From: Nanohaloarchaea archaeon B1-Br10_U2g29
Lineage (GTDB): Archaea; Nanohalarchaeota; Nanosalinia; Nanosalinales; Nanosalinaceae
NCBI GenBank assembly: GCA_001564145.1
Contig: LKMQ01000001.1
Location: 1 to 51,737 of the forward strand
Reading direction: 5' to 3'
DNA: 51,737 nt
This document shows, piece after piece, positions 1 through 51,737 of the stretch; position 1 is the first letter of the stretch; the number at the start of each line of letters is the position of its first letter. Below the pieces are notes generated by a model. The model was not told the origin of the DNA. It searched no databases and was given only the letters and a program-made list of their open reading frames with translations. Both the position numbers and the translations under genes were made by a program.

Positions 1-117
1 AGAGTAGAAGAAGTATCAGGCCAAGAAGGAGTACCAGTTCTAAAAGATCCTAATACTGACACAGTGATGCCAGAGTCAGATGATATTGTAGAGTACTTGG
101 AAGAGCATTATGGCTGA
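1..117 (+). CDS. C-terminal fragment of a thioredoxin-fold (glutaredoxin/GST-N-like) protein; 5' end lies outside the window
   Basis: Frame +1 is open from base 1 to TGA at 115-117: RVEEVSGQEGVPVLKDPNTDTVMPESDDIVEYLEEHYG*. The VPVL...ES..I..YL ending resembles glutaredoxin-type C-termini. Not in the ORF track because there is no start codon in the window. Confidence 0.35.
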   Translation, partial: RVEEVSGQEGVPVLKDPNTDTVMPESDDIVEYLEEHYG

Positions 118-623
118 ACGATGCCAGAATCTAACAGAGATTTAAGAGACTCGTCCAATGCATAAATTCCTTCTTCTTTTTCGTTCAAGGCCTCCTCCTT
201 CAGGTGAGGGAATCTTCCAGGCTGTGATAAGGCCTGCTTAACCTGTTCTGCAGTAAATATCTCAGGTAAACTTCTCCAAACCTCATAGACAGATTCGAGA
301 TGTCCTTCTGGAACAATCAAGTACTCAGTTTCAATATCATAACCCATCGTCTTCATATACATCTCAAAATTATCAAGCTGTTCCTTCGCTTCACAAGCTT
401 TGCCAACTAAAGTCCTCTGATTCAGGCTGCCGCTCTCCTTAACCTCATAGGCCTTCAATCCGTCATCTTTCTGGACTAACAAATCAACCTCCCCAAGATA
501 ATCTTCATTTGGACCAGGATCAATGAATACTCCAGGATAACCTTCCTCCAGAGCTATTACATTCTCTCCATAATATTCAGAAAGTTTCTCAACCTCCTCA
601 GAAGAATTATGACTACTGACCAT
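108..623 (-). CDS. hypothetical protein with PD-(D/E)xK nuclease-like motif (Hjc/restriction-endonuclease-fold candidate)
   Basis: 171-aa ORF. GEVDLLVQKDDGLKAYEVKES fits the D-x(n)-E-x-K core of PD-(D/E)xK nucleases. Acidic composition matches neighbours. Function is inference only. Confidence 0.45.
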   Translation of the reverse strand: MVSSHNSSEEVEKLSEYYGENVIALEEGYPGVFIDPGPNEDYLGEVDLLVQKDDGLKAYEVKESGSLNQRTLVGKACEAKEQLDNFEMYMKTMGYDIETEYLIVPEGHLESVYEVWRSLPEIFTAEQVKQALSQPGRFPHLKEEALNEKEEGIYALDESLKSLLDSGIVQP

Positions 624-661
624 ATAGATTATGACTTAGAAAAAAGAATATTAAGTATGAG

Positions 662-736
662 TGGACCGGGCCAGATTTGAACTGGCGGTCTCCACGTTAT
701 CAGCGTGGCGCTATAACCTGGCTAAGCTACCGGTCC
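662..736 (-). tRNA. tRNA-Ile (anticodon GAU)
   Basis: 75-nt cloverleaf read on the minus strand. Acceptor GGACCGG/CCGGTCC, anticodon stem CCACG/CGTGG with loop CUGAUAA, T-arm GCCAG-TTCAAAT-CTGGC, discriminator A. No intron; CCA not encoded. Confidence 0.9.
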
Positions 737-823
737 CTGTAAGAACTGATTGGCGGGTAAGTATTTTTAATGCATTGTTAGTATCGGAATAACTTTTAAC
801 CAAGGAAACCACATTCATTTTTT

Positions 824-1288
824 ATGTCTGGCCTTGAGAGAAAGGTTAACAAGATTGAACAGAATATAGAGGCTTTAGTTCCTAAGAGCAATCAGGCCCG
901 TTTCAAACTGTTTCTCGATCAGTTCATGCCTGCTGCTTTGATAGGATTAGGCTCGCTACTAACCTTCAATTTCTTAATAACGCCTACCGAACAGGCCTCA
1001 TCAATCATAAATATACTGAATATTACCGTAATCTGTTTTTTCAGTATCAGATTTTTAGTCTCTTTAAGTCTAGCAGAATCAAATAAAGAGTTTCTTAAGG
1101 ATCACTGGTTTGATGCCTTACTTGTTTTACCTGCGTTGACATTGTTGAAGGAAGTCAGACTGCTTTTCATTATTGAGTCTGAAACTGAAGAAAGAGCTTT
1201 GCTAAGCTTCATCTTTGCTAGAAGCACCGTAATTTCTGGGAGAATAACGAGAATGTATACGTGGTTACGTAGAACACTTAGACTCTGA
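824..1288 (+). CDS. small membrane protein resembling an isolated voltage-sensor (S1-S4) domain of Ion_trans channels, no pore domain
   Basis: 154 aa with 3-4 hydrophobic helices. FLKDHWFDALLVLPAL resembles the S3 motif (f..W N/f.D..vv) of voltage-gated cation channels. C-terminal R/K-spaced helix ARSTVISGRITRMYTWLRR. No P-loop/S5-S6 follows; tRNA-Lys lies directly downstream. Confidence 0.45.
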   Translation: MSGLERKVNKIEQNIEALVPKSNQARFKLFLDQFMPAALIGLGSLLTFNFLITPTEQASSIINILNITVICFFSIRFLVSLSLAESNKEFLKDHWFDALLVLPALTLLKEVRLLFIIESETEERALLSFIFARSTVISGRITRMYTWLRRTLRL

Positions 1289-1303
1289 ACAAGTATGTAT
1301 AAA

Positions 1304-1377
1304 TGGGCCCAACGGGATTTGAACCCGCGACGCCCGGCTTAAAAGGCCGGTGCTCTGCCAGACTGAGCTATGGGCCC
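1304..1377 (-). tRNA. tRNA-Lys (anticodon UUU)
   Basis: 74-nt cloverleaf on the minus strand. Acceptor GGGCCCA/TGGGCCC, D-arm GCTC-AGTCTGGCA-GAGC, anticodon stem CCGGC/GCCGG with loop CUUUUAA, T-arm GCGGG-TTCAAAT-CCCGT, discriminator A. No intron. Confidence 0.9.
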
Positions 1378-4041: not shown

Positions 4042-4057
4042 GATTCAGGCCTGAATC
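4042..4057. repeat. perfect 16-nt palindrome GATTCAGGCCTGAATC centred on AGGCCT
   Basis: Read directly. Lies in the 119-nt spacer between the stop of the OB-fold gene (4071) and the start of the DRG gene (3951). Confidence 0.8.
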
Positions 4058-5355: not shown

Positions 5356-6045
5356 ATGTCAGATAATTATGAGAAGAAAATCAGAGAAATCAATCAAAGG
5401 CTGAAAGATTATTATGGTGAACCGGAGAGGCCTACAGATCAGTCTGGTATAGATTATCTTGTTGAAACTATTCTTTCACAAAATACTAATGATATCAACC
5501 GAGATAAAGCGTTCAACCAGTTGAAAGAAAAGTATAGTTCATGGGAAAAAGTCGAAAACGCTGAAAGAGATGAATTAATAGATACTATACGGGTCGCAGG
5601 GTTAGGACCTACAAAGGCAGAAAGAATCCAAAAATCACTGCGAATTGTTAGAGAGGATCAAGGAAAGTATTCGCTAGAGTTTATAGATGAAATGAAAGTA
5701 GAAGAAGCTAAAAAATGGTTGACAGATATACCCGGTATTGGACCTAAAACAGCTGCGATAATTCTCTGTTTTTATTTTGGAAAACCTGTTATGCCGGTCG
5801 ATACGCATGTTCACAGAATAAGTCAAAGACTAGGCCTTATTCCTGAAGGAACTTCTAGGGAAAAAGCCCATGAAATCTTGGAAGAAAGAGTTCCGAATGA
5901 TTTAATCTATGAATTCCATATACTTTTGATTTACCATGGTAGAAAGCACTGTAAGGCCCAGCATGCAACTTGCTGTGAAGGGCCTCTAGCTGACTTATGC
6001 AGTAACTGTGGTGAAATAAGCTATGATGATGAATTAAGAGTCTAA
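5356..6045 (+). CDS. nth: endonuclease III / HhH-GPD DNA glycosylase with Fe-S cluster
   Basis: ILSQNTND, helix-hairpin-helix IPGIGPKTAAIIL, PVDTHVHRI, and the C-terminal Cys cluster CKAQHATCCEGPLADLCSNC. Confidence 0.85.
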   Translation: MSDNYEKKIREINQRLKDYYGEPERPTDQSGIDYLVETILSQNTNDINRDKAFNQLKEKYSSWEKVENAERDELIDTIRVAGLGPTKAERIQKSLRIVREDQGKYSLEFIDEMKVEEAKKWLTDIPGIGPKTAAIILCFYFGKPVMPVDTHVHRISQRLGLIPEGTSREKAHEILEERVPNDLIYEFHILLIYHGRKHCKAQHATCCEGPLADLCSNCGEISYDDELRV

Positions 6046-7609: not shown

Positions 7610-9604
7610 CTAAATCTTCTGGACAAATCCTTGTTTTGGCTCGAACAACTCGCCTTCTCTCTTAAGCTTCTCTATAACTTTTTCAGTCTTTTCAGGAGTT
7701 ATATCCTCTGACTCTGCTCTTTCAATGACTTCCTCAATTTCGGCACTGTTATCATCACCGGAAAGCTCATCTATCAAATGCTTAATAGTCTGGATTCTAT
7801 TCCTTTGAGAGCTTGAAACTCCTGATTCAATACGGTCAATATCGAAGTCACCCGTTTCGGGATCCATACCCACCTGCTCTAACGTGTAAGTTAAAATGTC
7901 AATAGCCCTTTGGGCATCACTCTCATCAACTTCTTCCTTTAACTGGGCGCGCGCAGAGGCCTCAGCAATTCTAACCATTGCCTCCAACTGACGGGCTGTA
8001 ATCGGAACCGAATCCTTATCACCGGAAGAACGCATCGAAACATAAAATTCTTGTATCTTATCTGTTGCCTCCTCCAATAACTGAGGCCTGACATTTTTCT
8101 TAGCATAAGCCACATATCTCCTAAGCTGTTGTTTATCTATCTCTGCATCTTGTTCTTCAGGCTCTCTATGATTTGATAAAATCTGATTAGCCAGTTTAGT
8201 GTCCCTATCTTTATCTGGTTCATCCTTTACTGGGAAGATAAAGTCAAACCTGGAAAGAAGTGTGTCACCAATATTGATTTGTTCTGGAATTGGTTCGTAA
8301 GGGTCAAATCTCCCAAGTTTTGGGTTACCTGCAGCCAAAATAGATGTCTGGGCATTCAGTGTGGCTTGTATATTCGCCTTAGAAACCGAAATCTGCTGCT
8401 GTTCCATCGCTTCGTGCAATGAACTCCTATCCTCAACTGACATCTTATCAATTTCATCAATCGCTGCCATACCTTTATGAGCTAAAACTACGGCTCCTGC
8501 CTCCAGGCTAAATTCGCCTGTAGATTCTTCCTTAACGACAGATGCGGTGAGCCCTGCTCCTGTACTGCTTTTTCCTACTACGTAGCGGCCTTTCGGCGCT
8601 AATTCTCCTGTAAATTTAAGTAGCTGTGATTTACCTGTTCCTGGCTCACCTATCAAAAGTATGTGTAAATCGCCACGGCTTTTCACTCCGTCTTCACGGG
8701 TTTTCCTAACTCCTCCAAATAATTGTAGTGCAATTGCCTCTTTTATTTTATCATGCCCGTAAATACTGGGTGCTATAGACCCTATAATTCTTTCAAATAT
8801 TTTTGGATCTTCAGCCATCTCCTTGATATGCTCTATTTCATCTTCATCGAGTTCAAGCTGTTCAAACTCCTGTTGCCGAGGCTCAACATTATTAGCCTCC
8901 ATAAAAATATCGAACTTCTTACTATTTTTCTTGATAGGTCTCTCACGGACTATGCCGGTGACCTCAACAACATTACCTGGAACCACCTTTTTCTGGAACT
9001 CTGGATCAACTAAATCACCCTCTAATATAACTGACAATGAGCTTGGTTGTTCAGATCCTTCTCTTGACTCCGGATTTTCCTCCAAAGTCACAATCTGTGT
9101 ATCCCTCATATGTTTTTCTAAAGGCTCAAATCTCTTGCTACCGCAGTCACACTTGTAAGGAGATTTAAGCTGTGAAGAGTCCTGGTCTTTCTCATAAGTT
9201 GCACCACACTGGGTACACTCAAATGTGGCTGATACAACTTCAGGCTTGACTTGGGACGCTCTCTTAATCATTCCTTCAACTGGAACAAAACGGCCTATAT
9301 GCTCAGAACGCATGTTCCTAAGCAGAACATAATCCTCTTCAGGCATATTGACGAAACGAACATTCATATCAGTCTCCAAAAGATCAATAGCCATCACCCC
9401 TTCCCTTGCTGCATCTAAGGCCTGCTCAGGGTTATCGCGGATATATTCTGTGACTTCAGGACTGAATAAATCTAATTCCTTAAATTCAACGACTATAGAT
9501 TCGTCTCCACGTTTCTCAGCCTGAAGCACTTCTTCTTCATAACGTTCAGTGAAGAACTCCTCAAACTCAGTTACCGCCTCCCCATAATCCATACATATAC
9601 TCAT
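7610..9604 (-). CDS. mcm: MCM replicative helicase
   Basis: Zn finger CTQCG...CDCG, Walker A GEPGTGKSQLL, Walker B AAIDEIDKM, arginine finger SRFD, C-terminal wH. 660-664 aa, no intein. Alternative start at 9592. Confidence 0.95.
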   Translation of the reverse strand: MSICMDYGEAVTEFEEFFTERYEEEVLQAEKRGDESIVVEFKELDLFSPEVTEYIRDNPEQALDAAREGVMAIDLLETDMNVRFVNMPEEDYVLLRNMRSEHIGRFVPVEGMIKRASQVKPEVVSATFECTQCGATYEKDQDSSQLKSPYKCDCGSKRFEPLEKHMRDTQIVTLEENPESREGSEQPSSLSVILEGDLVDPEFQKKVVPGNVVEVTGIVRERPIKKNSKKFDIFMEANNVEPRQQEFEQLELDEDEIEHIKEMAEDPKIFERIIGSIAPSIYGHDKIKEAIALQLFGGVRKTREDGVKSRGDLHILLIGEPGTGKSQLLKFTGELAPKGRYVVGKSSTGAGLTASVVKEESTGEFSLEAGAVVLAHKGMAAIDEIDKMSVEDRSSLHEAMEQQQISVSKANIQATLNAQTSILAAGNPKLGRFDPYEPIPEQINIGDTLLSRFDFIFPVKDEPDKDRDTKLANQILSNHREPEEQDAEIDKQQLRRYVAYAKKNVRPQLLEEATDKIQEFYVSMRSSGDKDSVPITARQLEAMVRIAEASARAQLKEEVDESDAQRAIDILTYTLEQVGMDPETGDFDIDRIESGVSSSQRNRIQTIKHLIDELSGDDNSAEIEEVIERAESEDITPEKTEKVIEKLKREGELFEPKQGFVQKI

Positions 9605-16342: not shown

Positions 16343-17209
16343 TTACATTACTGCTTCTAACGGACTATCTCCTGCACCAATCTCTAGGCCTCCAAAGAAT
16401 AATGATAAAAGATTGAACTCTGGAGTTCTTTGAACTCTTACAGGCTGCAGGTTCATATTTGTCAGGTTCTCAGCTTCATCAATTGCTGCAGTTCTCCCTC
16501 CTAATGAATCGACTAGGCCTAGCTCTTCAGCCTCAGAACCTAAGAATATTTCTCCAGTGCCGACTCTCTCTTCTTGATTAGCAGTCAGGTTTCTGCCTTC
16601 CGATACTTCTGTCAAAAATTCATCCCCAATCAATTGGGATTTATTCGCTAGTACCTCTTTCTGCTCTTCTGTTGGTTCTTGGAACGGGGAGCCAAGTTCT
16701 TTCCTATCACCGGCCGTAATATTAACGTAGGAAACACCTATATCATCCATTAAATCAGAAAACTCTATGTAAGAGCTTGTAACACCTATACTACCCGTTA
16801 TGGATGCTGAATCCGCCACAATAGAATCACAGCCCAAGGCTGCTAAATAAGCGCCCGAAGCTCCAACATCTCTAAAACGACATACCGTAGGCACATCCAC
16901 AGCATCAATATTCCTCTTCAAGTCTTTAGAAGCCACAACAGCACCACCACCCGAGTTAATCTCATACATTATAGCATCAACGTTCTGTTCTTCCGCCTTT
17001 TGATTCAAGTCTCTAATATCTTGAGGAGTTATACCTGCTGAAAACCCTGAGGCCTCAGGAACAATATTTCCCGAAAGCTGGACAATACCAACTTTACCTT
17101 CTTCCTGCTGGAACTCTCCTTGGAATCTATCTATAAAATCTTGAAATGAAAAGGCTGCTGCCCCTGAAATCAATAAAACTGTTGCCAAAAATAACACTGT
17201 TTTCTTCAT
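16343..17209 (-). CDS. sppA: signal peptide peptidase SppA (S49 family, 36K type)
   Basis: N-terminal TM anchor, INSGGGAVVAS, and catalytic-Ser region DVGASGAYLAALGCD. Confidence 0.85.
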   Translation of the reverse strand: MKKTVLFLATVLLISGAAAFSFQDFIDRFQGEFQQEEGKVGIVQLSGNIVPEASGFSAGITPQDIRDLNQKAEEQNVDAIMYEINSGGGAVVASKDLKRNIDAVDVPTVCRFRDVGASGAYLAALGCDSIVADSASITGSIGVTSSYIEFSDLMDDIGVSYVNITAGDRKELGSPFQEPTEEQKEVLANKSQLIGDEFLTEVSEGRNLTANQEERVGTGEIFLGSEAEELGLVDSLGGRTAAIDEAENLTNMNLQPVRVQRTPEFNLLSLFFGGLEIGAGDSPLEAVM

Positions 17210-25775: not shown

Positions 25776-25809
25776 GCCTCCAATCACGGAGAGCGGCACA
25801 CGAGGAGGC
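25776..25809 (+). terminator. GC-rich stem-loop just downstream of the tfb stop
   Basis: GCCTCC-N22-GGAGGC, 4 nt after the TAA (25770-25772), followed by two AGGCCT copies and a T-rich tract. Confidence 0.25.
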
Positions 25810-25862
25810 CTTAACAGGCCTCTAACCAACATTTTATTAAATAACTCTACTAAGATCTTTCT

Positions 25863-26525
25863 ATGAGAGGATATCTTTTTCTAACAGTTCTTGTTTTAGT
25901 ATTTTCAACTGCTGTAACAGCATATCAAGAACCTAATATTACTGAGGTTAGTGATAATTTCGGTGAAACTTACGAAGTCGAAGAAGTAGGTGTTTTGAGC
26001 AAAGCAATATCTGATAAAGAGATTAAATTTGGAGAAAATCGAAGCATTGAAATGTGTGTTGAAGAAGTAGAGCATGAAGAAAGTGCTGAACTAAATTATT
26101 ATGAGGGCATATCGCACCCAAATTATAGATTGGAAGAAGATGACCCTTGTATAACTAGAAAAATACCGAAATCCTCTTATTCAGATACAGTTAGCCTGTC
26201 TATTGTAGTACAGGACAGCAATCCTTCAAGAAATCTAACTAGCATGACGAAACTTGAATATTCTAACACAGTAGACCCAATAGAAAATGATGGAGGCCAA
26301 AAAACTTCTACAGAGTACGATTATACCTTGATTGAAACAGAGCGTAAGAATGAGCTCGAAGGACGCGTATCGGAGCTAAATAGTACTGTTAAAGACCAGG
26401 AATCTGAGATAGAGAGTTTAGAAAGTGAGATTTCAGATAAAGATGAACAACTAGAAAACCTAAAGCAAGAATTATCAGAATTAAAATCTGGAATTTCGGG
26501 GACAATAATCTCTATATTCTCATAA
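25863..26525 (+). CDS. hypothetical secreted acidic protein with C-terminal coiled coil
   Basis: Signal-peptide-like MRGYLFLTVLVLVFSTAVTAYQ. C-terminal heptads (LESEISDKDEQLENLKQELSELK). Confidence 0.55.
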   Translation: MRGYLFLTVLVLVFSTAVTAYQEPNITEVSDNFGETYEVEEVGVLSKAISDKEIKFGENRSIEMCVEEVEHEESAELNYYEGISHPNYRLEEDDPCITRKIPKSSYSDTVSLSIVVQDSNPSRNLTSMTKLEYSNTVDPIENDGGQKTSTEYDYTLIETERKNELEGRVSELNSTVKDQESEIESLESEISDKDEQLENLKQELSELKSGISGTIISIFS

Positions 26526-26621
26526 ATTAGGCAATCGTCTTTTTCTTGTCTAATTCTATAGATTAATTTTTTAGAGCTTTAGAACCTTTCGAAATAAAAC
26601 TAAATAAAAATTTTGTATTTG

Positions 26622-27140
26622 CTACGATACTTTTTCTTCCAGCTTATCAAGAATACCTCTAGAAAATTCTAGGTTTAATTTTTCTCTAATATTTTTGATA
26701 TCCTCCCAATTTTCTTCATTTATCTTACCTCCGACTTTATTTGATAATCCAATCAAGTCTCCTGATGATTCATCTATTTTATGTTTATTTGGTATTAAAC
26801 CTAGTCGAGCCCAAAATCCGTAGAATATAACCCTATGAGCAGCTCCCAATAAATCAGCAGCATCTTTTCTCAACTGATCCCTAACTTCCTCGCTATCCTT
26901 TTCATCAATCACTCCAGTATTTGCTGCTTTATTACCATAGTATACCAAGTTACTTGCAATTCTCCCTCTCATTTTAGAAATTTCATGAATTGGCTCAACA
27001 ATGACTCTCACAATTAATCTGCCTGCCACATACACACTAACACCAGCCATAATAGTTAGAAAGATTTCATTACTAACTAGATTAGATAAAAATCCAAAAA
27101 ACTGTGAAAAGAGACTATAGAAATAACCAGATAAAGCCAT
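26622..27140 (-). CDS. hypothetical membrane-anchored protein
   Basis: 172 aa, N-terminal hydrophobic segments, downstream of trm1 on the same strand. Confidence 0.5.
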   Translation of the reverse strand: MALSGYFYSLFSQFFGFLSNLVSNEIFLTIMAGVSVYVAGRLIVRVIVEPIHEISKMRGRIASNLVYYGNKAANTGVIDEKDSEEVRDQLRKDAADLLGAAHRVIFYGFWARLGLIPNKHKIDESSGDLIGLSNKVGGKINEENWEDIKNIREKLNLEFSRGILDKLEEKVS

Positions 27141-27168
27141 ATTGGTCTAGTTACAATATAATTATAAA

Positions 27169-28263
27169 TTAATTTTGTTTATTTGATCTAATAATCTCTA
27201 GAATATCTTCCAGTGGTGCATCCGTCCTTATCCCTGTGGGCCCAAAATGTGTTCTTGAAACTGGGTAGCCTTTTTCATCTAAGGCCTCTATGACTTTGTC
27301 TCTTTTTGGGACAGATACGTCGTGGCGTGAAGCTAGTTCATGGAGGTCGTAGAATGGTGTTACTATTTCTGATTCTGCGTGGACTTTTTCGAGTATTTCT
27401 TTTGAGGCCTCCCATTCGCCTGGAATATTTTCGAGCATTTTTTCTGTGAATCTTGAGTCTGCTATTTTTCCTGTCCATAGAGGGCCTGCGTGTTCTACAT
27501 CTTTTCCACAATGCCCACATTCTTGGACTCTTTCTAGTTTTCTCCATCCACAGCTGTCACAGTAACTTAGATAACCAATGTTTTCTAGATTCTTGTTGGT
27601 TCTTTTCTTGGATTCTGTGACTCTGCCCATTACGCGTGTATAATGTTTGAATTGGTAGCAGAACTTGGGATCGAAGCATTTGTCGTAACGTGCAAGGTTC
27701 CTGAAAACCTCTTTCAAGTAGATCCTTAATGCGGTTTCGTGCATGAACCCGTTTTTCAGAGGTTTGCTGCCGTATCTTCTTTCGCATACTGTTGGGTAGC
27801 TTCCGGTCGGCGCCGAGTTATCAGTCGCTGTCAGGCCTACAAATGAGTTGTAGTTTGCTGCTCGAGCTGTCGAGTCAAGAAACGGTGTGAAAGGCCCGTA
27901 AGGATCAACATCGATAAAATGGAAGAACCCTGGTTTTCCAGACAAGAATACATTGGCATCTTTGTTCTCTACTGAGGCCTCTACACTGTTTTCTTTCAGT
28001 GCTTTTTCTGTGGCCTCTACTGCGTTAGGATTTGCATCATTCAGGTATAAATCTCCTAGGTCTGCGTATCGTAGGCCTCTGATCCCTGTTCCAGTTAATA
28101 GGTCGGCGATGTTTGGGTTCTCTATATCTATTTTTTGGAAGAATGTTTTTGCTGCTATCTGTGAGAGGTCTCTGTTTTCCAGCATCTCTGGATTGAAGAA
28201 GACCTGGTCGTCCATCTTGGGTTCTCCTTCTGGCGCATAGATTTTGAGGTCTCTTTCTTTCAT
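27169..28263 (-). CDS. trm1: tRNA (guanine26-N2)-dimethyltransferase Trm1
   Basis: FIDVDPYGPFTPFLD SAM-MTase motif. Zn cluster CDSCGW...CGHCG. 364 aa. Confidence 0.9.
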   Translation of the reverse strand: MKERDLKIYAPEGEPKMDDQVFFNPEMLENRDLSQIAAKTFFQKIDIENPNIADLLTGTGIRGLRYADLGDLYLNDANPNAVEATEKALKENSVEASVENKDANVFLSGKPGFFHFIDVDPYGPFTPFLDSTARAANYNSFVGLTATDNSAPTGSYPTVCERRYGSKPLKNGFMHETALRIYLKEVFRNLARYDKCFDPKFCYQFKHYTRVMGRVTESKKRTNKNLENIGYLSYCDSCGWRKLERVQECGHCGKDVEHAGPLWTGKIADSRFTEKMLENIPGEWEASKEILEKVHAESEIVTPFYDLHELASRHDVSVPKRDKVIEALDEKGYPVSRTHFGPTGIRTDAPLEDILEIIRSNKQN

Positions 28264-30786: not shown

Positions 30787-30798
30787 ACCAACTTAAAT

Positions 30799-30819
30799 GA
30801 GGCCCTTTCAAGGGGCCTC
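30799..30819 (+). promoter_or_regulatory. GC-rich RNA stem-loop immediately downstream of atpK (GAGGCCC-tttcaag-GGGCCTC)
   Basis: 7-bp stem (6 G:C pairs), 12 nt after the atpK stop, inside the operon. Confidence 0.4.
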
Positions 30820-30854
30820 CAACACTTACTATTCAACACAAAAAAGAGGATATT

Positions 30855-31391: not shown

Positions 31392-31411
31392 TACCTAAAG
31401 ACTATCCTTAC

Positions 31412-32365: not shown

Positions 32366-32368
32366 AAA

Positions 32369-32680: not shown

Positions 32681-32701
32681 ACAGAGGGAAAAAACAATAC
32701 T

Positions 32702-34462
32702 ATGGCACAACAATCAGAACTTAAAAAAGAGAACGCAGACGGCGAAATCTACAAGGTCGCAGGACCTGTAGTCATCGCAACCGACATGCAGCCACAGATG
32801 TACGACGTGGTCTATGTTGGAGACGAAGGCCTGATGGGAGAAGTAATCCAGATCGAAGGGGACAAATCCTACATCCAGGTCTACGAAGACACAACAGGAG
32901 TAAAACCAGGAGAACCAGTAGAAAACACAGAACAACCACTATCCGTAGAGCTCGGTCCAGGACTTCTGGGAAGCATTTATGACGGGCTTCAGAGGCCTTT
33001 GGAAGAGCTTCAGAAAATAAGTGGAGACTTCATCGAGAGAGGAGAAGATGCACCAGGAATCAGTCCAGATAAAGAATATGACTTCTCACCTCGTGTAGAA
33101 GAAGGAGACACAGTAGAGTCAGGAGACGTAATTGGAACAGTAGAAGTAGATTACGGAAAGCACAAAGTAATGGTTCCCCCAAATTCAGAAGGTGGAGAAG
33201 TAAAGGATGTAGAGTCTGGTGAACACACAGTCAAGCAAACAGTAGTTGAGCTTGACTCAGGCGAAGAAATCTCTATGAGACAGGAATGGCCTATTAGAGA
33301 CTCAAGGCCTGCAAGAGAAGACTTGAAGCCAGAAGTACCGCTTGTAACAGGACAGAGAGTGCTTGACGGGTTATTCCCGCTGGCTAAAGGAGGTACTGCA
33401 GCAGTACCTGGGGGATTCGGAACAGGAAAGACAGTAACACAACAAAGCCTGGCAAAGTTCTCAGACGCAGACATCATTGTATACATCGGATGCGGAGAAC
33501 GTGGGAACGAGATGACAGAAGTACTGGAAGAGTTCCCAGAACTGGAAGACCCACAGACAGGAGATAAAATCATTAATCGTACAGTACTAATTGCAAACAC
33601 ATCCAACATGCCTGTAGCAGCTAGAGAGGCCTCAATTTATACTGGAGTTACAATTGCAGAGTACTTCAGAGACATGGGTCTCGACGTTGCACTGATGGCA
33701 GACTCAACGAGCCGTTGGGCAGAAGCAATGCGTGAAGTATCCGCAAGACTGGAAGAGATGCCCGGAGAAAGAGGATATCCAGCATATCTATCCTCAAGAC
33801 TTGCAGAGTTCTATGAAAGAGCAGGAAGAGTTGAACCCCTAGGCGTAGAAGAACCGGGTTCAGTCTCAATTGTTGGAGCAGTCAGCCCACCTGGAGGCGA
33901 CTTCTCGGAGCCGGTAACTCAAAACACTTTAAGAGTGGTGAAAAACTTCTGGGCGCTTGACTCCGACCTAGCTGAGAAGCGGCACTTCCCATCTATTAAC
34001 TGGGATGACAGCTATTCAGGATACAAAGATAAATTAGCTGATCACTTTGAAGATGAAGTAAATGAAGACTGGCAGTCTAACATCCAAAGAATGAGAGACA
34101 TTCTGCAGAAGGACGGAGAGCTACAGGAAACAGTACAGCTTGTTGGAAAGGACGCATTACCTGACAGAGAAAGACTAACTCTAGAAGTCGGTACAATGGT
34201 TAAACAGTTCTACCTACAACAGAATGCCTTCCATCCAGTTGATGAGTACAGCCCTCCAGAAAAGACATTCCATATACTGGAGACGATTCTTGATTGGGCT
34301 GATGAGGCCTACGATGCACTAGAAGATGGGGCGATGGTCGAGGATATCATCTCATTGAGCAGTAAGAACCAGATCAGTGAGTTAGCGACCAGTGAAGACT
34401 TCCTAGATGTAAAGGAAGAAATCAAAAATCAGATGAACGAAGAGTTTGAGGAGGTAAGATAA
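32702..34462 (+). CDS. atpA: A-type ATP synthase catalytic subunit A
   Basis: Walker [11 protein letters not shown], non-homologous-region insert, 586 aa, no intein. Confidence 0.95.
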
Positions 34463-34463
34463 A

Positions 34464-35849: not shown

Positions 35850-35862
35850 AGGGCTTAAAAAT

Positions 35863-40161: not shown

Positions 40162-42771
40162 TTAACGGTACTCTTCACCTGAAAATTCCTGAGGATTATT
40201 ATCTGCCTTGAGCGAAGCTGTACTAGTCCAAGTATAATTGAAATTAGTAGCCTCTAGAAGACCTTCCAAGGGATCAAACGCATGCTGCTCAATCTTCGCC
40301 CATTCCCGGTTAAATGAAGGCCTATCCATTCCGAAGAATCTCGCCATTAATGCTTCTTCCTCGTCCCTATACTCGCTTCCAGGATCAACTCTTGCAGGAT
40401 CAAGATCTTCAGGAGAAATTCCAAGCTCAATCATATTCATCGACAGCTTAGCCTTCTGAACAGTTCCAGACATCTCTCCACCGACTTCATACATAATCGA
40501 AGCTCTCTCATCACTTTGGGTAAACCCGTTCTGCACCATATCATGCAGCCAAGTGTAAAGCTGTGTATCTCCCCATCGGAAAGGCCCATGTATATGCCCT
40601 GTTCCCTGGCTACTTTCATGACCTGGTTTTGTAAGGTGGTACATCCTCACCATTTGAGCCAAAGGCCTGTCTTCATCTACAGGCACACCATAATCATTGT
40701 TTTGCGCAAGCCACTCCTCCTGTTCGACTAATTTTTCCATCTGCTTCCAAGGATCAACTCCAAAACTTGCAGTATGCTCCATATCTATAGTGAACTTCAA
40801 AGGACACCCATAAAGATCATCATGAAGTTCGCCAATCTCATTTCTAGCCGTGATATTCACCGCTCTACAAGCTGCAACCATATCTTTAGGCCTCCACAAC
40901 TTGAAATGCGAATTAGCACTACCGTTCATCGCCTCAAAATTAACTCCAATACCATAATCATTCATCCATTCAATCCAAGTACACCCTTTTCTAGAATCTT
41001 CCTCCACATATTGGTTTCCATCCATATGAAACTCTGACTCAATCTGAGTAAAATGGCTCCAAACAACCACTGCAGCAGAAGCAGCCGAAACATCCTTTTT
41101 GAAAGCCTCATTGCTCTCTAACCTCTGAATATAGTCTCCGCCAAAATCAACTTCCCCATGCTTACTTTCAACAAGTATCTCCCAAATGAACTCTGGGGCT
41201 TCCCATCCTTCATGAACGACTTGTTCTCCTACAGATTCTTTAATATTAGAAGTACACATCCAAGCTGGGATAATCTTATGGAACAAGTTAGACTCCATCC
41301 ATAAGGCCTGCTCAAAACTATTAATCAACTGCTTCAAAAGATCCTGATGCTTCCTTTCAGGAGACTTTGTCTCAGCACCTTCAGCCTCAAAATAGTCTGG
41401 GTTACCTCTCATTACTTTCTCAGCATGTTTGGCCAAGCTATATTTTTCATCAAATCCTTGGGCTCTTTCCTGTATTTGGGTCTGTGTAATATCAAGTCGA
41501 CTTTGAAGAACTCCTAGTTTAGTATCTACAGATATAAAGAATTCATCATCTCCATTCCCCTCCCAAAGTTTGTCCATGGATTCTTCAGCCAATTGCAAGA
41601 ATTGCTTTTTTAGGTTCTGTTCGCTAGGCAAATTAAGTTCTTGAATTTTCTCTTCAATGTCATTATTTTCTATATCCTCTCTATCTCTTAATATACCCCG
41701 AACTCTTTTCTCGATTTGAACTCCGTTCTTATTTAATTCATAAATCAATTCTCCTATCCTATTTAAATCATCTCCAGACCTTACTCTATTAGCTTGTTGG
41801 AATAGATCGGCCAGATCTGTTATCCTTGATATCTCAAACATATCTGAAAGTTCTGATAATTCTGATAGTTCGTCCGGCAAAATCTCCGTCAAATCTATTG
41901 GTTCTTCTAACTCAAGTTTGTTGTGATCTTCAATTAGCTCTCGCCATTTTAGGCCTGAACCCCTGTCCTGCATACTTACAGACTGTAGCATTGCAGCTTT
42001 CTCCAAAAGCTGATCTTCAGGATCTACTCCTTCTAGTTCTGACAAGTTATTCCAAAAATCGTCAGCAGCCTCAGACTGTGCCCTTCTCCAAGCTCTTCTA
42101 AATTTTGGCGAAAATCTCTGGAACAATCCATAAATTTGATACTCGTCATCTACTTCTGAAAGAATGAAGGCCTTGTAGAAGTTCTCCAAGAACTCTTTAT
42201 TCCTGAACATGTTCTTCCCTGACTGATCTCGCATCTCTCTAAATTCTTCATTATATTCGCTGATTGGGAATCCGAATGGATCTAGGCCTACGTCCTGCGC
42301 CATTCTTTCTTTTAGCGGTGGTTCTTCATCAGTTGAGATATGAGGGTTAATTCTTGAGATTCTGAAGTCTAAGTCGGTTCTTTCCTCTTTTTCTTTTTTG
42401 AATGAAGCGAATTCTTGAAGATAGTTTGTGAAATAGTTGTGAGTTACGTCAAATCCTCTTCCTTGACCTGTTTTGTAAGCTGAGGTAAACCCTACATTAG
42501 GGTCAGCGTGGAAAGATACGTCAAGTCCTAAATCCTGTATAGTACTGTAGAGATCTGCTCTATCAATATGATATGTAGTAGGGTTTTCTACCTGTATCTC
42601 CATTTCACCGCCTCCTCGCTGAGCAAGCTCTCCAACTCTTCTGGCGAGCTCTGCAGGAACCTGCCCAATGTCAAGGCCTGAAGTATTTCCAACTTTGTAG
42701 TTAAGTTCCTGAGGATTAATTTCTTTATCTTCTGATTCAAATTTTTCTTTGAGTTTATCCATCAGGTACAT
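40162..42771 (-). CDS. large (869 aa) uncharacterised cytoplasmic protein; possible xylose-isomerase-like TIM barrel split by a long helical insert
   Basis: Ordered candidate metal ligands: VSFHADPN (H88), INPHIS (H144), VNFEAMNG (E613), FTIDMEHTASFG (D663/H666), MYHLTKP (H712), GHIHGPF, IMYEVGGE (E762). No TM helix, signal peptide or P-loop. Alternative start at 42762. Confidence 0.6.
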   Translation of the reverse strand: MYLMDKLKEKFESEDKEINPQELNYKVGNTSGLDIGQVPAELARRVGELAQRGGGEMEIQVENPTTYHIDRADLYSTIQDLGLDVSFHADPNVGFTSAYKTGQGRGFDVTHNYFTNYLQEFASFKKEKEERTDLDFRISRINPHISTDEEPPLKERMAQDVGLDPFGFPISEYNEEFREMRDQSGKNMFRNKEFLENFYKAFILSEVDDEYQIYGLFQRFSPKFRRAWRRAQSEAADDFWNNLSELEGVDPEDQLLEKAAMLQSVSMQDRGSGLKWRELIEDHNKLELEEPIDLTEILPDELSELSELSDMFEISRITDLADLFQQANRVRSGDDLNRIGELIYELNKNGVQIEKRVRGILRDREDIENNDIEEKIQELNLPSEQNLKKQFLQLAEESMDKLWEGNGDDEFFISVDTKLGVLQSRLDITQTQIQERAQGFDEKYSLAKHAEKVMRGNPDYFEAEGAETKSPERKHQDLLKQLINSFEQALWMESNLFHKIIPAWMCTSNIKESVGEQVVHEGWEAPEFIWEILVESKHGEVDFGGDYIQRLESNEAFKKDVSAASAAVVVWSHFTQIESEFHMDGNQYVEEDSRKGCTWIEWMNDYGIGVNFEAMNGSANSHFKLWRPKDMVAACRAVNITARNEIGELHDDLYGCPLKFTIDMEHTASFGVDPWKQMEKLVEQEEWLAQNNDYGVPVDEDRPLAQMVRMYHLTKPGHESSQGTGHIHGPFRWGDTQLYTWLHDMVQNGFTQSDERASIMYEVGGEMSGTVQKAKLSMNMIELGISPEDLDPARVDPGSEYRDEEEALMARFFGMDRPSFNREWAKIEQHAFDPLEGLLEATNFNYTWTSTASLKADNNPQEFSGEEYR

Positions 42772-42780: not shown

Positions 42781-44460
42781 TTATTTCATTGTGTTCATTC
42801 CGAATCCGATTTTGTAGTCGAAGTAGAATTCGAATCTGAACTCTGTGATCATATCTTGTATTGCCGTATTTTGTTCGCTGCCATCTAAATAAAATTGGTC
42901 GGTTTGGCCTGTGAACTTTGCTAGTTCTTTATTTACTCCTTTAAGCATTTTTGAATCTTTATCGCTGCTTTCTCCTAAATCGATATCTAATACTTCTTTT
43001 AAGGCCTCAAGGTGTTCTTCTGAGAAGTCTTCCGATATACTTTCTACTGTGTCAAGTCCGTCTTCTACTCTCCTTAGCTTGGAAGAAAATTCTATTGCCA
43101 CTCGCTCATCTAGCTCTTCTTCAATCATTTCCCTAAGTTCTCTGATAGATATCTCCTGTTCCTTTCTAGCTTCCTTAATTTTCTGATTATCTTCATGGAC
43201 ATTGAAATCGCCGACGTATTCGCTGTGCATCTCCTCTACTAGCTCCTCTGCTTCTTCAATCTTAGGTTCAAAGAAGTTTTCAAAGACGTGTTTGCATACT
43301 ACCGCAGGCCTCCAAAATACCACTCCTGTTGAGCTTCCGCCCGGCTGATTCGGTTGCTCGCCCTTCGCTGTAACTACGTGAACGCCAAATATGTGCATAA
43401 TTCTGTAATGAGTAATCTTGTCGTCGTCACTTTCTGGAACTAGTCTTCCGTTTTCTTTCTTGAATCCTTTGTGGCAAATAAATTCAAGTTGTCTTTCCAT
43501 TGAGGAGTAGCCTTTCCATTCGTAGTATTTGGTTAAATCACCTTGTTGGTCGCCCATCTCATTTATCATCACTACATCTCTAACATAAGGCTCTAACCAG
43601 TCTTTTGTTTTCTCAATACTTTGTTCGATGTTCCTTAGCTGTGCTTTTAACTCTTTAAGCCGGCGGTTTACCTCACTACCATACATATCCTTCCATTTCT
43701 CATACATCGTGTATTTCTTACGAAGAATAGCCTTCTCATTTCTCGGTAGATCTGCTAAAGCACCGTCATTAAAGTCATCAGCAGTCTTATCGTCTTTCCC
43801 TTCAGCCATCTGCTTTGCGGTCTTCAGGTCATTAACTGAGTCCATCTCCATGAAATCTGCGACAATCGTCGGATAGATATTCTGGTCTCTGAGGAATCTC
43901 AAGGCCTGTTCATCTGCTCCTTGGCCTCCAGCTCCAGCTCCGTCTACAAGCTGGACAAAATCTCCTTTAAGCATATCTTCATCATGTGAGTTGAAGGATT
44001 CTGCCCGGCTTCTTAACTTTCTGATATCATGCTCAAGTAAGTGCTTGGTTTCGAGAATATCTGAGAAATTGCTTAAAGTCTGGTTTACACGTTGCTCAGC
44101 CTGTTGTTTTCTCTGCATGAACTCATCATGCAACTGGCTTTGTGGGGAAACAAATATTGATTCTGTAACGCGACTAACATTGTAACCTAAATCGTCATCA
44201 TATTTGTCAGGTGCTGTTAAAACAACTCCATATCCTGTTCCTTGTCCTCCAGACTTACCTTTCAGCTTTCTGATAGGTTGCCCCATTATCTTCATTATGG
44301 ATCCTCCTTCTTCACGGAGCTCGTCCAGATTGGAAATCTTTCCCTTCTTGATATCATTCACTAAGTCTGCTGCTTCTCCTGAAACACCGCCACCATGACT
44401 GTCAAAATGGACGAACGTATGGCCAAACTTGCAGGTTTCAGAATCTCCGCCCGAGGACAT
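42781..44460 (-). CDS. large (559 aa) uncharacterised cytoplasmic protein, operon partner of the 869-aa protein
   Basis: Stops 9 nt before the next gene's start. Gly-rich loops SHGGGVSGE, GKSGGQGTGYG, GAGAGGQGAD. Central coiled coil (RRLKELKAQLRNIEQSIEKTKDW). No family recognised. Confidence 0.6.
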   Translation of the reverse strand: MSSGGDSETCKFGHTFVHFDSHGGGVSGEAADLVNDIKKGKISNLDELREEGGSIMKIMGQPIRKLKGKSGGQGTGYGVVLTAPDKYDDDLGYNVSRVTESIFVSPQSQLHDEFMQRKQQAEQRVNQTLSNFSDILETKHLLEHDIRKLRSRAESFNSHDEDMLKGDFVQLVDGAGAGGQGADEQALRFLRDQNIYPTIVADFMEMDSVNDLKTAKQMAEGKDDKTADDFNDGALADLPRNEKAILRKKYTMYEKWKDMYGSEVNRRLKELKAQLRNIEQSIEKTKDWLEPYVRDVVMINEMGDQQGDLTKYYEWKGYSSMERQLEFICHKGFKKENGRLVPESDDDKITHYRIMHIFGVHVVTAKGEQPNQPGGSSTGVVFWRPAVVCKHVFENFFEPKIEEAEELVEEMHSEYVGDFNVHEDNQKIKEARKEQEISIRELREMIEEELDERVAIEFSSKLRRVEDGLDTVESISEDFSEEHLEALKEVLDIDLGESSDKDSKMLKGVNKELAKFTGQTDQFYLDGSEQNTAIQDMITEFRFEFYFDYKIGFGMNTMK

Positions 44461-49720: not shown

Positions 49721-49935
49721 TTATCCCTACCTCCAATGAAAGGCAGAAGCTTGCCCCATCTAACTGATTTCTCTACTGCTTCAGCAGTGGACTCAACCGA
49801 TTCAACGGAGTGTTCAGCTTTCTCTACGAACTCATTGAAATTCTTCAACAAGAACATAAAGTAGCCAAGTAAAACTATCGCCATCGTCTTCAGTATTACA
49901 TCCAGAAACGCATTTAGAGTTCCAAGTTCTATCAT
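49717..49935 (-). CDS. hypothetical small membrane protein (72 aa)
   Basis: One TM helix (MAIVLLGYFMFLL). First gene of a minus-strand trio ending in the MFS gene. Confidence 0.45.
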   Translation of the reverse strand: MIELGTLNAFLDVILKTMAIVLLGYFMFLLKNFNEFVEKAEHSVESVESTAEAVEKSVRWGKLLPFIGGRDK

Positions 49936-50021
49936 AACTCCATTTTGTATAGGCCTGGGTTTATAACTTGCGGTTTCGGCAAGAGTTAAAAGCCTGTAAC
50001 CCGAATTTTCTATGTGATAAC

Positions 50022-50363
50022 ATGGTTGAAGTACCTGAAGACATTGAAATAGAAGACTTACCTTTCACCCACGCAAGAATCAAAAGAATGATTAGAGATG
50101 AGGCAAGCGACGGACAATACGTAAGAGGAAACGTATATTACGGATTAAACCTGTTACTGGGTCAGATAGCGGAAGAAATAATTTCAAGCATGATGGAAAC
50201 CGAAGCAGCATATGTCGAGAAACACCATCTTGACCATGCCGCCAGAAAGTATGAGAAAGTAGAAAACATCATTAAGGAGAAAGAAAGAGTAAGCAGAAAA
50301 TTAGAGGCCTTAAGCGCTGATATCGAGAAATTAAGCAGAGAAGTACAGCAGAGCGACCTCTAA
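50022..50363 (+). CDS. histone-fold-like protein with C-terminal coiled coil
   Basis: LPFTHARIKRMIRDEASDGQYVRGNVYYGLNLLLGQIAEEIISSMMETEAAYVEKHHLDHAARKY fits a1-L1-a2-L2-a3 of the histone fold (NF-Y/NC2/DUF1931-like). It is followed by KEKERVSRKLEALSADIEKLSREV. ATG at 50022 preferred over the track's TTG at 49968. Confidence 0.45.
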   Translation: MVEVPEDIEIEDLPFTHARIKRMIRDEASDGQYVRGNVYYGLNLLLGQIAEEIISSMMETEAAYVEKHHLDHAARKYEKVENIIKEKERVSRKLEALSADIEKLSREVQQSDL

Positions 50364-50451
50364 AAAACCGGTTTTAAAATAAACATATCTCTTCTTTTTA
50401 TTGTAGGCCTAGACAACAGTATTTAAGAGTTATAACCCCGTTATATTTTTT

Positions 50452-50793
50452 ATGGACTTTGAATCCGAAATAATTACTAGAGACTTCTTACCGGCAGCCC
50501 GGTCACTTCTGGCAGAAACACTCTCAGACGAATACGGGCTGTACCAAAAAGAAATCGGGGAAAAAATGGATATCACACAGCCTGCAGTAAGCCAGTACCT
50601 CAACAAGAAACGAGCAAGCAAAAAAACACTTAGAAAATTCAGAGATGACCACCAAATAATGCTTCTGATAGATGAAGCCGCATCAAAAGCAGCCAAAGAC
50701 GAAACTTACATCCACGAGTTCAGACAGATACTGGAAACAGTCAGATCCAAAGGCCTAATGGGGGAAAAGTTCAGAGACACAGAAAAACTGTAA
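50452..50793 (+). CDS. small HTH (XRE-like) transcriptional regulator
   Basis: YQKEIGEKMDITQPAVSQYLNKKR helix-turn-helix. 113 aa. Confidence 0.6.
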   Translation: MDFESEIITRDFLPAARSLLAETLSDEYGLYQKEIGEKMDITQPAVSQYLNKKRASKKTLRKFRDDHQIMLLIDEAASKAAKDETYIHEFRQILETVRSKGLMGEKFRDTEKL

Positions 50794-50807
50794 AAAAATA
50801 AAATATT

Positions 50808-51737
50808 CTACTTGAATTCATACTCAGGCTCATCATCTTCTTCCGAACCTCTTAAATCCTCAACCCTACCCCTTATTCTATCAATAGCTGATATTTCCTC
50901 TTCCTCATCAGAGTGAGAGTAACCCTCATCATCTTCACTTTCTGAAGATCCAATATCCATATCCTTCAAACTATCAATATCAAGCTCGTAATCATCACTA
51001 TACAGAACAAATCCTGCCCCTCCACCAGCTAATAACAGTAAGAAAAACAAACCAGCAATAATGTACCTATTTCTCATCGCAGTCTCATGTTCATCTTTTA
51101 CTTCCTCAAAAGTAGATTCAGCCGACTGAAGAGAACTTGCAAGGCCTTCTAAAATCTGATCAGCCTCGTAATATCTGCCTTCTTCAATAGCTTGCTGAGC
51201 TTCATCAAAACTAGCTTCAAACTCCTCAACCTCAGAGTCGACTCTCGACTCCCTATCATCATTGAAAGAGTTCCTCATATCCTCAAAACGGGACTCAAGA
51301 TCACTGTACTCATTGGAAATCTGTTCAACCTCTGACTCAATTTCTTCCTGCTGCTCATCATCAGCCCTTACAAGAAGCTCAACACTCACAGATGCATCAG
51401 CGGTTGAGGCCTCAAAAGTAACATTTGACTCTCCTAAATCATTTTCAGGAGAGATCTGTAAAACAACAGTCTCAGAATCACCGGGAACCATTTCACCATA
51501 TTCACCGGATTCGATAAAGGATTCAGATCCAGTAACTTCTCCTTCACTGACAACAATATCCCCAGTATTTTCAAGTACTATTTCAAAGTCAACTGTCTCA
51601 CCTGAAGTCACTTCAACAGACTCGCCAGCAGTCATGGAAAGCTCAGGATTTGCATCAGGCAAGTACTCAAACTCAAAGCTTTCAGAACTACCCCATTTAT
51701 CTAAATTGTCTTTAGCCCTCAGAAATACTTCATGACT
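50808..51737 (-). CDS. acidic type-I membrane/surface protein with Ig-like (CARDB-like) ectodomain; 5' end outside the window
   Basis: The reading frame stays open from 51662 to the window edge (…SHEVFLRAKDNLDKWGSSESFEFEYLPDANPE…). GESVEVTSGETVDFEIVLENTGD is a CARDB-like strand pattern. Coiled coil, a TM helix (YIIAGLFFLLLLAGGGAGFVLY), and an acidic cytoplasmic tail. Confidence 0.6.
   Translation of the reverse strand, partial: SHEVFLRAKDNLDKWGSSESFEFEYLPDANPELSMTAGESVEVTSGETVDFEIVLENTGDIVVSEGEVTGSESFIESGEYGEMVPGDSETVVLQISPENDLGESNVTFEASTADASVSVELLVRADDEQQEEIESEVEQISNEYSDLESRFEDMRNSFNDDRESRVDSEVEEFEASFDEAQQAIEEGRYYEADQILEGLASSLQSAESTFEEVKDEHETAMRNRYIIAGLFFLLLLAGGGAGFVLYSDDYELDIDSLKDMDIGSSESEDDEGYSHSDEEEEISAIDRIRGRVEDLRGSEEDDEPEYEFK

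Follow-up and report, generated by a model that had tools for sequence, protein, structure and literature searches.

The window analysed here, the first 51,737 bp of contig LKMQ01000001.1 of Nanohaloarchaea archaeon B1-Br10_U2g29 (GenBank assembly GCA_001564145.1), contains exactly 144 copies of the palindromic hexamer AGGCCT. This amounts to one copy per 359 bp, or 2.8 per kb, and places AGGCCT first by count among all 4,096 hexamers. The process behind it acts on the DNA itself throughout the genome, whatever the reading frame, the strand or the precise position. We see about an even chance that AGGCCT is a highly iterated palindrome (HIP) of the type described for cyanobacteria, accompanied by an orphan AGGCCT methyltransferase, or by a methyltransferase plus a reader, and by a bias for alleles bearing the site. 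The copies start at the following positions of the window:

188, 230, 449, 993, 1493, 1532, 2499, 2651, 2930, 3816, 4047, 4648, 4859, 5428, 5832, 6646, 6993, 7199, 7957, 8084, 9418, 9760, 9875, 10265, 10386, 10578, 11033, 11306, 11529, 11775, 11971, 12777, 13094, 13574, 14014, 14545
14931, 14992, 15892, 16386, 16515, 17050, 17221, 17507, 17754, 17879, 18073, 18504, 18602, 18735, 19238, 19661, 19916, 20111, 20357, 20480, 21175, 21382, 21503, 21625, 21892, 22125, 23126, 23284, 23653, 24141, 24314, 25292, 25601, 25736, 25806, 25816
27282, 27405, 27833, 27975, 28073, 28333, 28643, 28725, 29203, 29261, 29673, 30137, 30332, 30517, 31021, 31202, 31768, 32112, 32233, 32827, 32993, 33305, 33627, 34305, 34922, 35098, 36083, 36399, 36488, 36671, 36879, 37355, 37381, 37683, 37788, 38064
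38276, 38334, 39554, 40318, 40663, 40888, 41304, 41951, 42168, 42284, 42674, 43002, 43306, 43902, 44594, 44813, 45006, 45290, 45414, 46210, 46403, 47027, 47293, 47497, 47656, 47930, 48219, 48590, 48787, 49205, 49951, 50305, 50405, 50751, 51142, 51407

Abundance, codon context and spacing of AGGCCT

Base composition predicts 7.4 copies in the window and a first-order Markov model 11.4, while 100 dinucleotide-preserving shuffles gave 11.15 ± 3.98 copies with a maximum of 25. Depending on which of these nulls is used, the enrichment over chance is about 13- to 20-fold, which bears out the estimate of about 140 copies and a 15-fold excess made by eye in the first-pass annotation of this DNA. The maximal-order Markov expectation is 132; this null is uninformative, because the pentamers AGGCC and GGCCT are almost confined to the hexamer. 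An A and a T flank 144 of the 221 GGCC tetramers (65%, slightly under the earlier estimate of about 70%), where about 9% would be expected. Every other 6-bp palindrome has an observed-to-expected ratio (O/E) of 2.5 or less. The enrichment is not shared by permutations of the same letters: the median count of 180 permutations is 5, and the few with 20–36 copies (36 being the maximum) are words that overlap AGGCCT.

The specificity is sharp and ends at the hexamer. Given the other five, each of the six positions is 77–85% specified, the outer A1 and T6 included, and the information outside the six bases does not exceed 0.06 bit per flank position, so that there is no flanking consensus. The commonest 10-mer containing AGGCCT occurs five times. 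An extended consensus, a dispersed repeat, a miniature inverted-repeat transposable element and a repetitive extragenic palindromic element were considered and ruled out, the flanks of the copies being uninformative. Beyond the window, a contig from a JGI brine metagenome (SL_5KL_010_BRINEDRAFT_10000017), 100% identical to the window over 10.6 kb, continues for another 5.4 kb and carries 16 further copies there, against 1.0 expected. The density is equal in independent same-species assemblies from ENA, NCBI, JGI and Logan, and the excess is therefore no assembly artefact.

The 67 called genes cover 94% of the window. When synonymous codons were shuffled within each gene for 500 rounds, 30.8 ± 3.7 copies remained (maximum 42; this figure includes 13 fixed non-coding copies), so that the observed 144 lie at a z of about 30. 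A codon-aware null thus does not explain the excess, and the proposal of a frame-independent process at the DNA level, made in the first-pass annotation, stands against a codon or dipeptide effect. Among the 131 coding copies, 25 are read as AGG-CCT, 53 as xAG-GCC-Txx and 53 as xxA-GGC-CTx; 69 lie in plus-strand genes and 62 in minus-strand genes, and the remaining 13 are in non-coding DNA, where the density is higher (4.5 per kb) than in coding DNA (2.7 per kb). All codon phases, both gene strands and intergenic DNA are thus represented, as had been claimed, and the three examples given for the atpA gene are in the frames assigned to them:

32993..32998, plus strand: frame 0, AGG-CCT, Arg-Pro, offset 291 from the atpA start at 32702
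33627..33632, plus strand: frame 1, xAG-GCC-Txx, Glu-Ala-Ser, offset 925 from 32702
32827..32832, plus strand: frame 2, xxA-GGC-CTx, Glu-Gly-Leu, offset 125 from 32702

Where the amino-acid sequence permits AGGCCT, it is usually used. In the window 129 of 212 synonymous opportunities are spelled AGGCCT, while codon usage predicts 13. Arg-Pro dipeptides are written in this way in 25 of 31 cases (2.4 expected from codon usage), [EKQ]-Ala-[FLSYCW] contexts in 51 of 87 (4.5 expected) and x-Gly-Leu contexts in 53 of 94 (6.0 expected). The share of GCC among alanine codons is 93% in the context AG_T and 11–23% elsewhere. Synonymous opportunities are thus close to saturated, with about 60–80% filled.

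Several copies and intervals, singled out by symmetry or spacing, are listed below.

4042..4057: intergenic copy within a 16-nt perfect palindrome
17046..17059: copy within a 14-nt palindrome, inside the S49 peptidase gene
51404..51415: copy within a 12-nt palindrome
25806..25821: closest pair of copies, 10 bp apart, in non-coding DNA downstream of the TFB gene
25822..27281: longest AGGCCT-free stretch, 1,460 bp with a GC content of 0.33, coinciding with a strain-specific insertion that contains two hypothetical genes

The three longer palindromes are located where the first-pass annotation had put them. They are not notable as extensions of the motif, since the palindromes around the 144 copies measure 6, 8, 10, 12, 14 and 16 nt in 105, 28, 6, 3, 1 and 1 cases, respectively, about as random flanks would give. 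Short spacings are deficient in the window, for gaps below 100 bp and also for gaps below 50 bp, of which there are four, against 18 under a uniform null and 9.5 under a context-aware one. The copies are also placed more evenly than by chance: the coefficient of variation of the spacing is 0.75, where uniform placement would give 0.99 and copies drawn at random from the contexts able to hold them 0.89 (P = 0.003). Eight enriched loci (see below) together have 56 gaps below 50 bp where 102 are expected, although some single loci are not significant.

At the genome density, about four copies would be expected in the AGGCCT-free stretch, and none is present. Window positions 25863–27140, the slot between the TFB and Trm1 genes, hold genes for a coiled-coil-like protein of 220 amino acids and a hypothetical protein of 172 amino acids. 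In three same-species contigs (L081–L083) the same slot is occupied by a GNAT acetyltransferase gene (L081, 4009–4485), and in other genera by yet other genes. This is consistent with the insertion being recently acquired DNA, in which the motif has yet to accumulate. Another insertion was seen in the MCM gene of one same-species strain (L270, positions 514–2080): a 1.57-kb intein with Intein_splicing and LAGLIDADG domains, aligning between window positions 8542 and 8550. The MCM gene of the window (7610–9604) has no intein. The intein carries three AGGCCT and is hence not motif-free.

Some palindromes are avoided in the window, namely CTTAAG (4 copies, 24.9 expected, O/E 0.16), CTCGAG (3 copies, 11.2 expected, O/E 0.27), GTGCAC (none, 4.3 expected) and GGTACC (one, 3.5 expected); GATC and CTAG have an O/E of 0.6. 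This suggests ordinary restriction-avoidance pressure alongside the excess of AGGCCT. GTGCAC is one form of GDGCHC, which Ca. Nanohalococcus SVXNc methylates (PMC10266531).

Distribution and retention among the nanohaloarchaea

When the same syntenic region, about 20 kb each, is compared among many nanohaloarchaea, the enrichment is patchy. O/E values of 11–20 (2.4–4.3 copies per kb) are found in the window, its strains and the loci L087, L089, L094 and L097, and also in L147/L148 (Haloredivivus G17-type), SG9, L111, L112 and Nanosalina VS9-1. Intermediate values of 4–9 are found in L088/L118/L096, L107, L122 and L129. Values of 2 or less characterize Nanohalobium constans, L090, L091, L099–L104, L109, L110, L113, L115 and others. 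The state does not follow relationship closely: in a tree of nine concatenated proteins the enriched SG9 is sister to the non-enriched N. constans, and L107, which belongs to the same family as the window and differs from it by only 17% in DNA sequence, has less than half its AGGCCT density. Loci of the haloarchaeal host type contain 0.156 copies per kb, at an O/E of 1.06, and the window is 18-fold denser; seventy-odd other archaeal and bacterial loci have unremarkable counts. The comparison with sister genomes and the putative host, to which the first-pass annotation had pointed, thus gave a divided answer: the enrichment extends to some nanohaloarchaea and is missing from others, and from the haloarchaea.

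In the non-enriched lineages no substitute palindrome more than about 5-fold over-represented was found. Their loci are often depleted in GGCC, down to an O/E of 0.05; one of them (L103, SL_4KL_010_BRINEDRAFT_10000818) has a single GGCC in 16.5 kb. Other tetramers are nearly absent elsewhere, ACGT with one copy in 10.8 kb (L102) and CTAG with one in 15 kb (L128). Since these lineages lack different tetramers, nanohaloarchaeal or related lineages are under very different restriction-type pressures.

The difference between lineages reaches into the proteins. In nine universally shared proteins, the number of peptide contexts compatible with AGGCCT, relative to the expectation from composition, is 1.20–1.37 in enriched and 0.75–0.93 in non-enriched lineages, which means that conserved proteins of the former contain about 50% more such peptides. 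Eight control hexamers show no such split. The pressure for AGGCCT thus overrules codon preference and leaves its mark on protein sequence as well.

Retention of the motif differs in the same way. In the same orthologous genes, the occupancy of synonymous opportunities is 0.56–0.75 in five enriched genomes, 0.28 in L088 and 0–0.06 in three non-enriched genomes. Between enriched species, AGGCCT is retained about three-fold better than neutral sequence: motif positions differ in 14 cases between the window and L094, where 49 are expected from background positions of the same codon class, and in 19 cases between SG9 and L111, where 52 are expected. Between the window and the low-density L107, 15 positions differ and 18.4 are expected, which is the neutral rate. 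Sites that relatives have kept are in L088 mostly AGGTCT, AGACCT, AGGCTT or AAGCTT now. In close relatives where the enrichment has been lost, AGGCCT decays at the neutral rate and largely by C-to-T changes.

Two of the intermediate loci, L129 (Ga0102936_1000205) and L122, also have raised numbers of AGGCCN and NGGCCT, with GGCC overall 2- to 2.6-fold over-represented; either the outer positions may be decaying there, or the reader may be less stringent. Among viral sequences, one temperate-virus contig with an integrase (L184, IMGVR_UViG_3300047319_000951, 23248–32960), the host of which is not known, contains 29 dispersed AGGCCT in 9.7 kb (about 22-fold enrichment) together with 37 CGATCG. 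Of the AGGCCT-dense viral contigs among the matches listed from IMG/VR (at least 120), nearly all are tandem-repeat arrays.

Candidate readers of the palindrome

Sister lineages of similar GC content and amino-acid composition are found in the on and the off state, from which we infer that the process depends on a dispensable trans-acting factor, gainable and losable, that reads the exact 6-bp palindrome. As the six positions are equally sharp and nothing outside them is specified, this reader would be a dimer resembling those of Type II systems. AGGCCT is the Type II specificity of StuI. A StuI-type system methylating AgGCcT is active in Alcanivorax borkumensis (PMC12128166), and in cyanobacteria each HIP is accompanied by an orphan methyltransferase cognate to it (PMC4390886, PMC5861425). 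On the grounds of this sharp, StuI-identical specificity and of the cognate methyltransferases of the cyanobacterial HIPs, the most likely reader would be an orphan DNA methyltransferase specific for AGGCCT, or such an enzyme with a partner that reads the methylated site. Alleles with AGGCCT would be favoured over alleles without it, either by weak selection for site density or by a methylation-guided bias of repair or recombination, and sites would accumulate until limited by coding constraints and by diminishing returns at short spacing.

The cyanobacterial HIP1 is GCGATCGC, and alternate HIPs include GGCGCC, GCCGGC and GCsGC (Elhai 2015, PMC4390886; Xu et al. 2018, PMC5861425). Like these, AGGCCT is a short, GC-rich, perfect palindrome at least 15-fold over-represented, present in genes in all frames as well as between genes, lineage-specific with some relatives lacking it and, in comparisons between enriched species though not within the species, retained better than neutral sequence; the candidate ideas, too, are the same (a methyltransferase-linked repair ratchet, selection, an uptake or Chi-like role). 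Unlike HIP1, which is a cyanobacterial 8-mer occurring about once per kb, AGGCCT is a 6-mer in DPANN archaea, in symbiont genomes of roughly 1 Mb, and about three times as dense (one per 230–410 bp). The cognate methyltransferase is established for the HIPs and putative for AGGCCT; nanohaloarchaeal lineages without AGGCCT have no replacement palindrome, and repeated recent decay of the motif is visible among close nanohaloarchaeal relatives, which also sets it apart from the HIPs. With a StuI-type Type II target, AGGCCT shares the recognition sequence itself and the sharp, palindromic, dimer-like specificity, and words of the GGCC type are under pressure resembling restriction-modification in sister nanohaloarchaea. 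Such targets are, however, normally avoided or neutral in their own genome, whereas AGGCCT is the commonest hexamer here; an orphan methyltransferase, or a reader other than a restriction system, is easier to reconcile with this than an active restriction enzyme.

Several observations weigh against a HIP-type process with an orphan methyltransferase. The joint occupancy of shared contexts equals the product of the single occupancies (for instance 14 against 13.0 for the window and SG9), and because co-occupancy equals independence given the amino-acid context, individual locations of AGGCCT are not conserved as such; this differs from the HIPs. Five other contigs of the species are 96–97.5% identical to the window. 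Within the species, AGGCCT positions have changed at the background rate (12 differences against 12.0 expected), which at face value is contrary to strong purifying selection acting site by site. A Pfam scan of nearly all of the 67 open reading frames of the window and a motif scan of the nanohaloarchaeal loci detected no gene for a methyltransferase, a restriction enzyme or Vsr; as the loci all cover one syntenic region, this is weak evidence. The only published nanohaloarchaeal methylome, that of Ca. Nanohalococcus SVXNc, shows GDGCHC alone, which bears on the matter only if that genome is rich in AGGCCT (PMC11001535); PacBio data gave this single motif although two Dcm-like methyltransferases are encoded there. 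A genome with a single orphan N4-methylcytosine methyltransferase in the REBASE survey proved to be M3_22 and not SG9, and this link was dropped.

The within-species rate has to be read together with the structure of the population. Divergence between strains changes along the alignment in a mosaic fashion, with values of 0–6.8% per 500 bp (window 31448–37480 compared with L081, L084, L085 and L086), 170 of 1,035 site pairs in same-species contigs fail the four-gamete test, and most changed AGGCCT sites sit in locally divergent tracts. For these reasons the changed sites probably arrived through recombination rather than by mutation on the spot. The mosaic pattern indicates homologous recombination in the population, or else chimeric consensus sequences of metagenome-assembled genomes. 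Compared with L081, eight sites are present in the window only and two in L081 only. Polarisation of gains and losses by an outgroup is ambiguous, as outgroup occupancy is high whatever the ancestry, and apparent gains of AGGCCT by two or three nucleotide changes are not isolated events. Transitions make up 5 of the 12 within-species motif differences, not above the background transition-to-transversion ratio of 1.8. The within-species data thus show turnover and homologous exchange, and not the nature of the force.

A signal marking self DNA would need no methylation: the motif would be read by an uptake, recombination or nuclease-attenuating machine, similar to the uptake signal sequence (USS) of Haemophilus, the DNA uptake sequence (DUS) of Neisseria or to Chi. 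DNA of the same species would be favoured in uptake or recombination, or would escape degradation, and molecular drive would spread the motif. This we consider possible, if on the whole improbable. Like USS and DUS, AGGCCT exceeds one copy per kb genome-wide, is rare in foreign DNA (its 2.8 per kb being 18-fold the haloarchaeal density) and is lineage-specific; it is tolerated in all frames, saturates synonymous opportunities and shifts peptide usage, and its spacing tends to be even, with short spacings deficient. The strain-specific island without AGGCCT, the mosaic strains, in which homologous exchange hence occurs, and the loss and gain of the trait, as of one dependent on a receptor, point in the same direction, and such a signal would suit a symbiont without nucleotide synthesis whose cytoplasm is bridged to that of a GC-rich host. 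Methylated HIP1 raises transformation, and uptake-signal and Chi-like roles have been proposed for it (bioRxiv 10.1101/2024.09.10.611283; 10.64898/2026.06.24.733823). However, six bases are poor in specificity compared with the asymmetric 9–12-nt cores of USS and DUS, which have flanking preferences where AGGCCT has none, and in some enriched loci the evenness of the spacing falls short of significance. Chi and the FtsK-orienting polar sequences are asymmetric with a strand bias, whereas AGGCCT, being its own reverse complement, is unable to carry a Chi-like orientation. A receptor and competence machinery are known for USS and DUS; we know of no competence or uptake system in nanohaloarchaea. 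In a variant that we hold to be a little more doubtful still, AGGCCT would be the self-DNA mark of an obligate symbiont, possibly read in methylated form, and archaea would thereby have their first counterpart of an uptake sequence or of Chi. A nanohaloarchaeon living on host nucleic acids while cytoplasmically connected to a GC-rich haloarchaeon could by this mark tell its own chromosome, with one site per approximately 300 bp, from host DNA, with one per approximately 6 kb. Scavenging nucleases would leave its own DNA alone, or recombination would prefer that DNA; molecular drive would spread the motif, and lineages losing the reader would decay to background.

Biased repair of the very-short-patch type, in which a 5-methylcytosine methyltransferase has AGGCCT as its target and new sites arise when a Vsr- or Mig-like enzyme over-corrects T:G mismatches toward C, is unlikely, and the first-pass annotation's suggestion of it does not hold as a sufficient cause. 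One-off variants at unoccupied contexts, like decayed sites, differ from AGGCCT mainly in its four central positions, by C-to-T or G-to-A transitions; the window encodes a HhH-GPD glycosylase (5356–6045); and a ratchet of this general kind has been modelled for HIPs by Elhai (PMC4390886). The known examples, Dcm/Vsr with CCWGG in E. coli and Mig.MthI with M.MthTI and GGCC in Methanothermobacter, likewise concern palindromes containing cytosine, whose frequency is shaped by a repair bias and whose main route of loss is by C-to-T changes. The deamination products, however, are not depleted in the window: AGGTCT, AGACCT, AGGCTT and AAGCCT number 15, 19, 17 and 24, with 16.2, 19.3, 17.8 and 20.6 expected, or 75 against 74 in total. 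The outer A and T, which T:G repair cannot drive, are as sharp as the cytosines, the excess of about 130 sites is larger than the whole baseline pool of transition neighbours, and an order larger than the effect of Dcm/Vsr, and the within-species share of transitions is no higher than background. The glycosylase, the only one in the window, is an ordinary EndoIII by its E-values (see below), and was rejected as a Mig-like T:G enzyme. Similarly small is the probability we assign to binding sites of an abundant, sequence-specific architectural or chromosome-organising protein, kept by selection for dense and roughly even coverage. The dense and fairly even placement with short-range repulsion, the higher density in non-coding DNA and the fact that density matters while location is irrelevant would all suit such a protein. 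On the other hand, no archaeal chromatin protein known to us is specific for a 6-bp palindrome, the histone gene of the window is shared with non-enriched lineages, a sharp all-or-none specificity is unusual for architectural proteins, and frequent evolutionary loss speaks against an essential structural role. That the excess of AGGCCT follows from codon, dipeptide or dinucleotide usage, belongs to a dispersed repeat or a mobile element, or stems from faulty assembly, has a probability next to nil. Only the maximal-order Markov expectation (132) comes near the observed count, which is a trivial point; synonymous shuffling leaves 31 ± 3.7 of 144, the motif is present in all frames, denser in non-coding DNA and devoid of flank conservation, permutations and other palindromes are flat, independent assemblies agree, and orthologous genes lack AGGCCT in sister lineages alike in GC content and amino-acid composition. 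Codon usage, dipeptide usage, repeat elements and artefact are thus excluded as causes.

The genes of the window are archaeal housekeeping genes, among them those for MCM, an ATP-dependent DNA ligase, TBP, TFB, a histone and the A-type ATP synthase operon. The closest genome relative is Nanohaloarchaea archaeon SG9, with an AtpA 79% identical; for ATPase subunit I the homologue of Ca. Haloredivivus G17 is 61% identical, followed by those of Ca. Nanosalina VS9-1, Ca. Nanohalobium constans and Ca. Nanohalovita (45–46%). The window thus belongs to an uncultured DPANN archaeon of a Haloredivivus-like family of nanohaloarchaea. Individual features are:

5356–6045, plus strand: HhH-GPD DNA glycosylase, E = 1e-40 to D. 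radiodurans EndoIII-1 and 1e-10 to Mig.MthI
22822–23022: histone gene, also present in non-enriched lineages
661–736, minus strand: tRNA-Ile(GAT)
1304–1377, minus strand: tRNA-Lys(TTT)
40162–42771, minus strand: protein of 869 amino acids with no Pfam match
42781–44460, minus strand: protein of 559 amino acids with no Pfam match

The two tRNA genes, both without AGGCCT, are the only RNA genes detected in the window with Rfam and ARAGORN. The two adjacent large proteins are kept in position in all nanohaloarchaeal loci examined, enriched or not.

Meaning for nanohaloarchaeal biology

For 30 years hyper-abundant palindromes have been puzzling in cyanobacteria, and in these alone. What is new here is a HIP-type phenomenon in archaea, whose genomes of about 1 Mb, with very few genes, range naturally from enriched through decaying to naive. 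The first-pass annotation had not anticipated the switching of the trait among close nanohaloarchaeal relatives, its effect on protein sequences or the precedent of the cyanobacterial HIPs. No paper joining AGGCCT or over-represented palindromes with nanohaloarchaea was found in the full-text literature, most subscription journals lying outside its coverage. Fully enriched, decaying and AGGCCT-free close relatives make the question of the responsible gene directly testable.

The density of AGGCCT is a sharp signal for the binning and host assignment of nanohaloarchaeal contigs, plasmids and viruses in hypersaline metagenomes, and its scarcity flags recently acquired DNA. The motif also biases codon-usage and peptide statistics of these genomes. 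Should AGGCCT indeed serve to mark self DNA in a symbiont nourished by the DNA of its host, a new layer of the biology between DPANN archaea and their hosts would come to light.

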